Below, one piece after another: positions 3,001 to 6,000 of a stretch of 20,069 bases of DNA; the first letter of the stretch is position 1; each line of letters begins with the position of its first letter. Source of the stretch: a virus. Taxonomy: Duplodnaviria; Heunggongvirae; Uroviricota; Caudoviricetes. Position numbers: made by a program. The DNA lies in the IMG/VR virus record IMGVR_UViG_2778261642_000012, positions 1 through 20,069 of that record. One strand, given 5' to 3'.

Positions 3001-6000
3001 ATGATTCCGTCCCGGATACCGAGAACGTTTCGTCCAGCAACTGGAGAGAGTTCGACGGTGGCATCATTGCCCATGCCGGAGGCGCTGGAGGTTTCGGCTG
3101 AGGATGGCACAGAGCATTTTCCTTTGACGAGCACCCGACCACCATTATCAAGCTTGCGCCGAAGAGCATCATTTTCAGCTTTCGCATCAGCTAACTCCTT
3201 CGTGTATTTAGCATCGAGTGCATCAGCAGCACGCTGGCGCTGCTGCATGTCAGTAATGGTGGCGGTCGCCTGCTTCAGCTCACTGACTTTTTTATCACGC
3301 TGTTCTTTATAGGCGATGGCGTTATCACGGTAATGATTGACCGCCCACGACAGGCAGACGATGATGCAGATAACCAGAGCATAAATAATCGCGGCGACTC
3401 TGCTCACTGATCTATCCCCCAACAGGCTAATGCACTTTCCTGGTCACGACGAATAACCTGTCCATAGCAGTTATTTGAACGTATGCGGCAATCGCGCCCA
3501 CCATCTTTTATCCACCAGCGAATCGCCTCGCATGCACCCTTACGATCACCAGCATTCAGTCGCTTATAAAACGTCGACGGGAAACACTTACCAGGGCCAA
3601 TGTTATAGGGACAAAATGACGCTATACCCGCTTTCTGTGGCTCGGTCAGTGGTACTTTAATATTACGTTCCACCCATGCCAGCGCCTTATCACGTTCAAT
3701 AGCGTTAACCTGGTCGCACTTTTCCTTCGACAGCTTCATTCCCGGTATGACGGGCTTACCATCCACCATTGTGGCACCGCGGCAGATGGTCCATATACCG
3801 GAACCATCACGGTATGCCGTTGTGTGATTACCCTCTTTTTCGTTCAGAAACTGGTCAAGAATGTCAGGCGCAGGCGCACCTGCGGCAATCAGCGCCAGAA
3901 CGACAGCCGACAGACCGTATTTGATTTTTGCGCTCATGGATATGGATGGATATTTATCAGGATTTATCGGTTCCAAATCCCTGGATATGTTTAGTACTCA
4001 GCCCGGCAGGTAGTTCCTCGCAGGGGTAATACTGACAATGTGAAGATCACAGAACAAACAGTAAGGACAACATATGAGCGATACTTATTTATCTAAAAAA
4101 GCTTTTGCTGATATTCTGGCCATCAGACAGGTTGTCATACTCCTGGTTAACGATTTACCAGATGAGAAAAAAGCAATTATTAAAGATTTGCTTACTAAAT
4201 CAGCTGACACTTTTTCATCAAAAAAATTACCCGAATCCCTGGAAACCCCGCAGGAAGTTTTAGACGAAATGAACAAATTGATTGCCGAATCATGCGCTAC
4301 TCTTGCTGAGACAATTTTAATTCCTGAAGAAACTTCATCGTCATACCATCAATAGTTTGCTGAACAGCTTTAGCAACAAACGCCACCCCATTTTCGTGGT
4401 GGCGTTGTCGCTCATTTACGGCTCGCATCGCGGCAACTATCGCACGACTTATGTCATCCCCGGCGTTTTTTTCCTGCCCTGCGCGCCTGGTGCTGGCTTT
4501 AACTGCACTATCAAAACCCGCAAGATGAGGACGATCGTGTTTATTGGCAGAATTTTCAATCTTAATGGAGTACTGATGCTGCAGATAAGACTCAACTTTT
4601 TCTGACAATTTTTCTGCCACTCCCAGGAAGACCTGCCTGACGCTCATTCTGGCTGCTGCCTCATAAAACTCCAGCGCGGCACCTTCAACACGGTCCAGCG
4701 AGATGTCCAGGTCAAAAATTTCACCGTCAAAGCGTTTTTTGTCCCGTAACGCTAAAGTTACCGTAACTTTATCCTCAAAATTGCGGATCCCTTTCACAAT
4801 CAGTTCATAGTTTTGAGTCATTGAATTACTCTCCCCGTGCAGCCTTACGCTTGTCTTCTCTGATTTTGAAGTACAGATTTGTCAGATAAGTCAGGAAGCC
4901 AAGAACCAGACTCCCCAGTACACCAATCGCAGCCCACTGTGAAGGACTGACCTGATCAAGCCACTGTAAAAACCAGTAGCCAGCACTGCCTGCGGAGGTG
5001 CCGTAGGCAATGCCCGTTGAAATTTTGTCCATGGATTTCATAGCCTCACCTCCGCAAATAACGGATGGCGTAGTTTTACACTGAGAAATGAAAGGGATTT
5101 GAAAAGAAAAACCCGCAAAAGCGGACGAAACGATATATACAGTAAGGAAAGCACTCTATCCAACAAACCACCCACAGTTAATCGGAATAAAAGCAGAGTG
5201 CTTATGAATGATCGCCTGCCCGAAGGTTAGTATTTCTGCACAGCAATTTTGCAAAAAAGCGATCATTCATAACTTAAACGTCTTTCAGCCACTCCGGGAT
5301 TTCCCATCATCGCAGACTGAAAGACTCTAACTGGAGCGGGCAGCGGGAATCGAACCCGCATCATCAGCTTGGAAGGCTGAGGTAATAGCCATTATACGAT
5401 GCCCGCATATGGTGCCGACTACCGGAATCGAACTGGTGACCTACTGATTACAAGTCAGTTGCTCTACCTACTGAGCTAAGTCGGCACTGGACCGCCACCG
5501 GGGACTCGAACCTCGCACACTCAACTTAAAGGGTTGACGCTCTTTCCTGATGAGCTAGTGGCGGTTGGTGGCCCTTGCTGGATTTGAACCAGCGACCTGG
5601 CGATTATGAGTCGCTCGCTCTCACCACTGAGCTAAAGGGCCGCGCGCAGAATAATAACGTTACGGAATTAATACTGCAATATCTTCAGAGGGCCTGATTA
5701 AATGCTGTTTTTCACTTGTCCACCAGCGTGTTTACTGTACTGCACCAAGTTTACGGGTACAAAAAACCCGCTCAGTGGCGGGTTGCTATCACAGCTATAT
5801 ATTTACTTATTATGCCGTTACTAACATTTATCTTCGACATATAATCGAAAACAAGGTTTGCTTAAAACTCTGCTTTCATTTTATCCGGGAATTTTTTATT
5901 TGCAGCATAATAACTACCAAGTACATAAGCGTTCATTTGCTGCTCTACATCAACCCGACATGCCGCACTAGAACAAGCTCCACTGATAAGCCCAAAAGAA

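Follow-up and report, generated by a model that had tools for sequence, protein, structure and literature searches.

An Escherichia coli prophage tRNA operon carrying a C33 tRNA-Lys(UUU) that appears to descend from the argN gene of Stx phages

In phages of the T4/T5 type, tRNA genes stand in clusters with gaps of a few nucleotides (nt), are transcribed as polycistronic precursors and are processed by RNase P and 3' exonucleases. In Stx phages of the 933W and Stx2a_F349 types, the tRNA cluster ileZ-argN-argO follows the antiterminator gene Q and precedes late or lysis genes. A new reading of phage tRNAs sees them as counter-measures to tRNA-cutting immune systems, and the proven cases cited (T5 tRNA-Lys, T5 tRNA-Tyr and a phage tRNA-Thr) were obtained with phage T5 or with a pooled library of coliphage tRNAs. 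Here we describe a cassette of four tRNA genes in IMG/VR virus record IMGVR_UViG_2778261642_000012 (positions 1 to 20,069; this whole stretch of 20,069 nt is called the window below). One of its members, an odd tRNA with anticodon UUU that we name Lys*, appears to be a remodelled argN, and we tentatively read it as a working lysine decoder that may be valued for its insensitivity to nucleases directed against tRNA-Lys.

The cassette shares with the Stx-phage clusters its position relative to Q and the lysis genes, the same promoter footprint and an identical ileZ with the second gene beginning 1 nt further on; that second gene is built on the same scaffold (C1-G72, U73 and A20, with A51·C63 as in F349-type argN). 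Unlike in those clusters, the second tRNA here has the anticodon UUU and not UCG, C33 and not U33, and a remodelled anticodon stem, and exact copies of thrU and glyT followed by a structured trailer replace argO. A sequence-only reading of the window had remarked on the departure from the usual ileZ-argN-argO set. The contents do differ, but the arrangement is not rare, because Lys* is present in 798 of 5426 complete E. coli genomes (~15%, about one in seven) and argN in 462.

Make-up of the cassette and descent of Lys*

By ARAGORN the window holds exactly four tRNA genes, each of them on the minus strand, and inspection of the sequence bore out what the sequence-only reading had reported of them: they are separated by 1 nt (5565), 2 nt (5487-5486) and 3 nt (5409-5407), and CCA is encoded at the end of all four. 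Their matches to the Rfam tRNA model (RF00005, gathering threshold 29 bits) have E-values from 1e-6 to 1e-14, so that none is a chance match, and the anatomy of the locus is well supported as that of a phage tRNA operon of the ordinary kind. The interval first proposed for the cassette, 5322-5669, does contain the tRNA genes, but the -35 hexamer of the promoter (5679-5674) lies just outside it.

Lys* is second in order of transcription and third when counted from the plus-strand side. The sequence and its Rfam alignment confirmed the unusual features first described for it, namely the C1-G72 pair, the A-C mismatch in the T stem (A51·C63) and the anticodon loop CCUUUAA, in which C33 is nucleotide 5531 and the anticodon occupies 5530-5528; discriminator U73 and A20 can be added to these. 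As a cloverleaf the molecule is complete: every stem is paired except at A51·C63, the tertiary nucleotides are all present (U8, A14, G18, G19, A21, U54 U55 C56 G57 A58 and CCA), and a score of 44.4 bits against the threshold of 29, the covariance check suggested for recognising a pseudogene, does not make it one. U33 is nearly universal in tRNAs, and it is at this position, with C33, that Lys* departs from a canonical elongator tRNA.

Comparison with Stx-phage argN (UCG) suggests where these oddities came from. The two genes are identical at 65 of 77 positions, and both stand 1 nt after an identical ileZ under a shared promoter. C1-G72, U73 and A20 are inherited from argN, and A51·C63 and G57 are common to Lys* and F349-type argN (933W-like alleles have G51-C63); the T stem of host thrU also has an A·C mismatch. 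Six of the 12 differences fall within the 17-nt anticodon arm, where the anticodon has gone from UCG to UUU, U33 has become C33 and the stem has been remodelled with compensation. From argN to Lys*, G-C gives way to A-U at pair 30-40, U·G to U-A at 27-43 and G·U to G-C at 3-70, and pair 7-66 occurs as U-A, U·G and C-G within the Lys*/argN family. Lys* is a paralogue of Stx-phage argN that has switched its anticodon and in which a non-canonical C33 has become fixed, and as such it would be a clear case of a tRNA switching amino-acid family by anticodon change with compensatory stem changes. Arginyl-tRNA synthetase recognises C35 together with G36 or U36, plus A20; Lys* keeps A20 but has U at position 35, and is therefore a descendant of argN and not a functional tRNA-Arg.

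A scan for a version of the scaffold with U33 and UUU returned only unrelated sequences, and one for C33 with a nucleotide other than U at position 34 found none (C33 with UVN or UUV was not scanned). Among GTDB species genomes, E. coli and Shigella flexneri alone had the 22-mer that spans the T-arm and acceptor of the scaffold, which leaves no wider family for comparison. In the searchable literature (ileZ/argN/argO and prophage tRNA-Lys), we found no discussion of the origin or the loop of Lys*.

With regard to the other members, tRNA-Ile2 is identical to ileZ of Stx phages (Stx2a_F349 ileZ), and its CAU anticodon is presumably lysidine-modified and reads AUA. The tRNA-Thr (UGU) and tRNA-Gly (UCC) genes are 100% identical to E. 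coli K-12 thrU and glyT, respectively. A recent capture of the host thrU-tyrU-glyT segment was considered and, in its simple form, rejected, since only the mature tRNAs match K-12 and their flanks have nothing in common with the host tufB-operon thrU/glyT locus. Thr and Gly are, besides, known as a module of their own: in Stx phage phi467 the pair stands alone, with the same trailer but with neither an Ile nor an argN-type gene, directly downstream of stxAB (L134 1580-2510). The four-tRNA array is therefore a mosaic of two modules, in which promoter-Ile-Lys* would have been joined to Thr-Gly. In a sample of IMG/VR contigs the order Ile-Lys*-Thr-Gly was found 92 times (plus four cases that had lost the Ile end to a contig cut), Ile-Lys*-Arg(UCU) 12 times and Ile-Arg(UCG)-Arg(UCU) seven times; from the last two arrangements it follows that Lys* takes the place of argN in situ. 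The descent from argN, the identity of Thr and Gly to host thrU and glyT and the fixation of C33 had all escaped the sequence-only reading.

Lys* and nucleases that cut tRNA-Lys

PrrC attacks host tRNA-Lys(UUU), cutting it 3' of U33 (PMC2610378), and also reads modifications of the anticodon stem-loop (PMC1950546); the same tRNA is a prime target of AriB, the nuclease of PARIS (PMC11464382). AriB cuts at U36AAUC/A41 (at the slash), cleavage is abolished by U39A (PMC12409363), and when 245 randomly chosen coliphage tRNAs were screened against AriB, enrichment was seen for tRNA-Lys(UUU) genes alone (PMC12445682). P2-OLD, for which tRNA-Lys is a secondary target, needs paired CNG motifs at 28-30 and 40-42, plus A37 (PMC12445682). 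Lys* shares the anticodon UUU with the host tRNA-Lys that these nucleases attack, and it differs at each of the sites concerned. At the AriB site it has U36AAGUU41, in which the published motif is absent. Its stem is CAA/UUG where that of argN is CAG/CUG, the palindrome having gone because of the compensatory change of G30-C40 to A-U, and so lacks the paired motif of P2-OLD substrates; its C33 sits at the scissile position of PrrC. By its sequence, Lys* may be insensitive to AriB, PrrC and P2-OLD.

Would such a tRNA still decode? The anticodon is the main identity element for lysyl-tRNA synthetase (LysRS), and Lys* has U34, U35 and U36. It most likely remains a working tRNA that would be charged by LysRS through UUU and would read AAA/AAG. 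The suggestion that it might be suppressor-like found no support, as its loop is of 7 nt and UUU is a sense lysine anticodon that reads neither a stop codon nor four bases; that it might be specialised is, in our view, plausible. As to modification, C32, U36, A37 and A38 expected of a substrate for N6-threonylcarbamoyladenosine at position 37 (t6A37) are present and position 33 is C. C33 blocks t6A37 formation by bacterial and yeast enzymes, and the E. coli enzymes TsaBCDE added no t6A to a U33C tRNA in a reconstituted system (PMC8887486), which suggests that Lys* carries no t6A37.

What, then, could be the value of an additional tRNA-Lys? Codon supply is a weak rationale for Lys*: E. coli has tRNA-Lys in plenty, encoded by several identical tRNA-Lys(UUU) genes, and an abundance of lysine codons. 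Since lysine codons are not rare, the most likely value of Lys* would lie in serving as a back-up tRNA-Lys whose body and anticodon arm are unlike those of the single host tRNA-Lys(UUU) species, itself a favoured target of PrrC, PARIS AriB and, secondarily, P2-OLD. The complete sequence of events that we propose is as follows. A conserved sigma-70 promoter would start transcription 1-3 nt ahead of tRNA-Ile2, RNase P would cut the four-tRNA precursor at each 5' end, and 3' exonucleases would trim the 1-3-nt spacers back to the encoded CCA. Codons that are enriched 1.4-1.8x in the prophage would gain further decoders in Ile2 (for AUA), Thr-UGU (for ACA and ACG) and Gly-UCC (for GGA and GGG), and Lys*, charged by LysRS through UUU, would decode AAA/AAG as a back-up to the host species. 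That Lys* is a lysine decoder valued for its insensitivity to nucleases is the account we put forward, tentatively and with less than even confidence. The broader evolutionary statement, that lambdoid prophages turned an Arg-tRNA scaffold into a nuclease-proof, t6A37-free C33 tRNA-Lys with its own promoter, active even in the lysogen, is possible but more doubtful.

It is very unlikely that Lys* acts outside normal decoding altogether, either as a decoy for tRNA-Lys-directed nucleases or, together with Gly-UCC, as a tuner of -1 frameshifting at the tail-chaperone genes G/GT. The authors of the AriB study raised the possibility of non-productive complexes between viral tRNAs and the immune effector (PMC12409363), which would suit a decoy, but in the P2-OLD study a resistant phage tRNA-Thr left the host tRNA unprotected, contrary to competition there (PMC12445682). 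With regard to frameshifting, we observed that in the prophage of E. coli AR_0089, which carries an identical array, the G/T junction (L130 21573-22411, minus strand) has the lambda-type slippery heptamer G GGA AAG, that a -1 slip there yields a continuous G-T fusion, and that the codons involved are read by Gly-UCC and Lys-UUU, both of which are in the phage array. The correspondence is probably a coincidence; in lambda and many lambdoid phages the identical slippery site serves although these phages have no tRNA genes.

A separate observation concerns the other tRNAs. The host-identical tRNA-Gly(UCC) of the array and Stx argN (L002 2501-2577, minus strand) have near-identical anticodon stems, UCAGC/GCUG(A/G), and both have the paired CAG/CUG motif and A37 described for P2-OLD substrates (PMC12445682). 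By motif alone glyT would be a candidate P2-OLD substrate; Gly is not mentioned in the main text of that study.

Conservation of Lys* and what weighs against its function

Lys* could instead be a non-functional relic, a copy of argN that has lost its Arg identity to mutations in the anticodon loop, the damaging U33C among them, and hitch-hikes, 1-2 nt from useful tRNAs, by way of phage recombination. We regard this as a rather doubtful explanation. Decay had been suggested from the sequence alone, but the copy in the window is intact by the criteria used for pseudogenes (truncation, disrupted stems or a sub-threshold covariance score): its oddities go back to argN, its annotated parent, with which it is level in Rfam score (44.4 bits for Lys*, 43.0 for argN), its cloverleaf is more stable (-22.3 as against -20.1 kcal/mol), and the changes from argN improve or compensate pairing at 7-66, 3-70, 27-43 and 30-40, leaving the stems better paired. 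The loop retains C32, A37, A38 and its 7-nt size. The NCBI Prokaryotic Genome Annotation Pipeline (PGAP), which we used as a proxy for tRNAscan-SE, lists tRNA-Lys without a pseudogene flag at 17 of 17 sampled matches (at least 98.7% identity over the full length). A minimum free energy (MFE) fold of the single sequence was uninformative, because the MFE structure of Lys* is not a cloverleaf but neither are those of its genuine neighbouring tRNAs.

The gene is also widespread. Matches at least 99% identical make up 279 of the 798, and the deposited genomes of phages PhiR47_1 and vB_EcoS-689R5 have intact copies. A further point against the relic is that neither C33 nor UUU varies in the sampled IMG/VR copies (113 stretches, including 86 four-tRNA arrays), which represent many recombinant contexts; in the anticodon loop only position 32 varies. 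Nucleotide diversity over the 86 arrays is 0.021 for Lys* (0.029 without the search anchor) and above 0.2 in the flanks, so that Lys* is about ten times more conserved than its surroundings. Among 15 alleles the acceptor stem is 100% paired, and the covariation score was reached by one of 500 shuffles and by none of the slid structures; this is supportive but not conclusive, because the sequences are related.

Several observations nonetheless weigh against a functional Lys*, and most of them are what a relic would lead one to expect. C33 stands in place of the near-universal U33, and the covariance model score is the lowest of the four tRNAs. The diversity of Lys* is about three times that of its neighbours (Ile 0.0075, Thr 0.008 and Gly 0.010). 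Common alleles have a 1-nt deletion in the D stem or the changes C4U/U8C/C11U and fall below the Rfam level of E = 0.01, and many alleles of the D-stem-deletion and U8C types are left unannotated by PGAP; even an intact allele, that of vB_EcoS-689R5, was skipped in its depositor's annotation. In IHE3034-type strains a 7-nt deletion removes the 3' side of the Lys* anticodon stem. IHE3034 itself (ST95-type; L003 1738-1810, minus strand) has the same array with the deleted Lys* and three substitutions, neither ARAGORN nor PGAP calls a tRNA at this copy, and the allele is a natural knockout. The broken alleles mean that the gene has been lost repeatedly, and a dead copy would hitch-hike given that it lies 1-2 nt from its neighbours. 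Together with the diversity, they point to selection on Lys* that is weak or intermittent.

Other points on this side concern function more directly. E. coli LysRS prefers A73, and Lys* has U73, inherited from argN. C33, and the absence of t6A37 that probably goes with it, should make Lys* a poorer reader of AAA/AAG, and the expression, lysine charging and nuclease resistance of Lys* are all predictions made from sequence. Moreover, the Thr of the array has the host sequence with its AriB and OLD motifs intact (CUG/CAG), so it is predicted to be sensitive to both nucleases, and over-expression of host thrU protected little, if at all, against P2-OLD (PMC12445682). It follows from the host-identical Thr that the array as a whole is not an anti-nuclease kit.

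Another proposal is that all four tRNAs raise the decoding of AUA, ACA/ACG, GGA/GGG and AAG in the AT-richer phage genes and that C33 is a tolerated quirk. We compared codon usage, a check the sequence-only reading had called for, between a prophage with an identical array and 40 flanking host genes. The codons that the array reads are indeed enriched in the prophage (ATA 1.7x, ACA 1.8x, ACG 1.6x, GGA 1.4x and GGG 1.5x), and so is AAG, at 2.1x, which tells against a special role for Lys* and would suit plain supply. Also, the exact host copies of Thr and Gly fit dosage better than evasion. However, AGA, AGG and CGG are enriched 2-4x although the array is without any Arg tRNA, both having been dropped from it, and since these unserved codons are enriched too, the match between codons and tRNAs is a generic one. 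A C33/U73 tRNA would also add little capacity to a host already rich in tRNA-Lys(UUU). Supply fits Ile, Thr and Gly loosely, and as the explanation for all four genes we consider it unlikely.

Expression, prophage setting and comparison with known tRNAs

The coordinates of the cassette and of the features around it are given in Table 1.

Table 1. Features of the tRNA cassette and its surroundings in the window
Feature	Position	Strand	Evidence or remarks
Q antiterminator	7320-6568	minus	Pfam Antiterm
Candidate late promoter pR'	6404-6376	minus	TTGGTG-17-TATTAT, between Q gene and 141-aa ORF
141-amino-acid (aa) open reading frame (ORF)	6287-5862	minus	PHROG 4748 (function-unknown family)
Intrinsic-terminator-like hairpin	5784-5765	minus	AACCCGCCACTGAGCGGGTT then T run; upstream of tRNA promoter
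Sigma-70-type promoter of tRNA cassette	5679-5651	minus	-35 TTGCAG 5679-5674, 17-nt spacer, -10 TATTAT 5656-5651
Discriminator, G+C-rich, and short leader	5650-5642	minus	TCTGCGCGC; sequence
tRNA-Ile2 (CAU)	5641-5566	minus	ARAGORN (Met/Ile2); Rfam 72.5 bits; PGAP tRNA-Ile
Lys* (UUU)	5564-5488	minus	ARAGORN; Rfam 44.4 bits
Lys* anticodon arm	5537-5521	minus	stem UCAAC/GUUGA, loop C32 C33 U34 U35 U36 A37 A38
tRNA-Thr (UGU)	5485-5410	minus	ARAGORN; Rfam 73.8 bits
tRNA-Gly (UCC)	5406-5332	minus	ARAGORN; Rfam 64.9 bits
Structured trailer, ~200 nt	5331-5130	minus	3 long hairpins; between tRNA-Gly and terminator-like hairpin
Intrinsic-terminator-like hairpin	5126-5111	minus	GTCCGCTTTTGCGGGT then T run; closes cassette ahead of holin gene
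Holin gene, P21-type	5041-4826	minus	lysis genes adjoin

The promoter had been described as the cassette's own and as strong-looking. The string is there and is conserved, but its strength was overstated, as it matches the consensus at 8 of 12 positions and a consensus scan made no call. It is comparison with related loci, more than the match to consensus, that makes it credible. We aligned the 160 nt upstream of tRNA-Ile in 60 distinct sequences belonging to at least six unrelated classes, Stx phages among them, and upstream of the discriminator the only invariant columns are the TTG of the -35 hexamer and all six bases of TATTAT. Across these classes the spacer keeps its length of 17 nt while its sequence varies; in the one class that the aligner had gapped, a TTGATT hexamer likewise precedes TATTAT by 17 nt. 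Several classes have a terminator hairpin just upstream of the promoter, and in one it abuts the -35 hexamer. The conserved hexamers and flanking hairpins thus appear to be the dedicated promoter and the boundaries of an insulated cassette.

The mature 5' end of Ile lies 9 nt past the -10 hexamer in the window, and the distance is 9 nt across contexts (10 nt in one class). A -10 hexamer so close to the mature end leaves a leader of only 1-3 nt, and transcription is accordingly predicted to start that far ahead of tRNA-Ile. With its own promoter and flanking terminator-like hairpins, the cassette could be expressed alone, and additionally by Q-modified read-through in lytic growth. Two matches to TTG-N20-TATTAT are found in the window, where 0.16 would be expected; the second match, which has the same -10 hexamer, is plausibly pR'. 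The upstream hairpin is likely the terminator of the transcript from pR' through the 141-aa ORF unless Q antitermination acts. The trailer folds with an MFE of -75.5 kcal/mol (z = -4.4 relative to shuffles), matched no family in the Rfam search, and accompanies the Thr-Gly module in the matches examined, phage phi467 included; it could be a processing or stability element, or a small RNA.

The sequence of the window is that of a lambdoid E. coli prophage. Over the 551 bases around the array it agrees with four complete E. coli chromosomes at 100% identity, and 14 further ones match at ~97-99% over the full length. On the minus strand the order is Q, candidate pR', 141-aa ORF, hairpin, tRNA cassette, trailer, hairpin and holin/lysis genes, which makes the cassette a self-contained tRNA operon (a "moron") in the late region, between Q and the lysis genes. 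The 141-aa ORF had no match in the Pfam search, and its position is kept in PhiR47_1 and IHE3034. The AR_0089 prophage (L130 5307-7530) is integrated beside dusA with a tyrosine integrase adjacent. It matches the window exactly around the tRNAs while the coordinates of other genes differ, and the cassette has therefore passed among related prophages by recombination.

Other RNAs were seen in and around such prophages. In the window, Rfam matches at gathering level were obtained for a C4 antisense RNA (12807-12894, minus strand, 83.6 bits) and, adjoining it, the isrK Hfq-binding RNA (12919-12995, minus strand, 67.9 bits); in the related prophage of AR_0089, an annotated gene for a Rha-family regulator covers these coordinates. 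The pair may be an antisense immunity module of P1/P7 or Gifsy style in a lambdoid prophage. The small RNA STnc100 (RF02076) has strong matches downstream of the tRNA/stx region at Stx-type loci (L002 792-1003, minus strand; L006 2852-3018, plus strand) and none in the Rfam scan of the window.

If Lys* does work as we propose, the idea of the counter-defence tRNA would extend to ordinary lambdoid prophages in about one in seven complete E. coli genomes, and Lys* would be a natural working bacterial elongator tRNA without U33. As a natural U33C tRNA it could be used to gauge the weight of U33 and t6A37 in decoding AAA/AAG, and it is easily tested, being a single 77-nt gene with natural broken alleles as controls. 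Should it prove inert, annotation would still be affected, since the gene is already annotated in RefSeq and hundreds of genomes there list it as tRNA-Lys.

How do these properties compare with those of known tRNAs? The few-nt gaps of the cassette resemble those of T4/T5 clusters, and polycistronic processing is proposed for it as well. Unlike those clusters, it has four genes, lies in a prophage, has an apparent promoter of its own with flanking terminators and includes two exact host copies. The C33 initiator tRNA-Met of multicellular eukaryotes is likewise a natural C33 tRNA that reads a codon starting with A (PMC8887486), but it is a eukaryotic initiator, whereas Lys* is a predicted elongator of a bacterial host.

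Phage tRNA-Thr(UGU) variants that rescue cells from P2-OLD (PMC12445682) differ from the Thr of this array, which has the host sequence with CUG/CAG intact and which, going by that study, should be cleaved by P2-OLD and should give no rescue; in this array the motif has gone from Lys* alone, and for OLD a tRNA-Lys is a secondary target. The closest parallel in purpose would be the PARIS-resistant tRNA-Lys(UUU) of phage T5 (PMC11464382, PMC12409363). Like Lys*, it is phage-encoded, has the anticodon of the targeted host tRNA-Lys and bears substitutions within positions 39-41 of the AriB site (A39/C41 in T5, G39/U40/U41 in Lys*). In contrast, the T5 tRNA is one of 23 in a virulent phage and has been proven resistant, whereas the resistance of Lys* is a sequence-based prediction for a tRNA of a temperate lambdoid prophage, built on an Arg-tRNA scaffold with C33 and U73.

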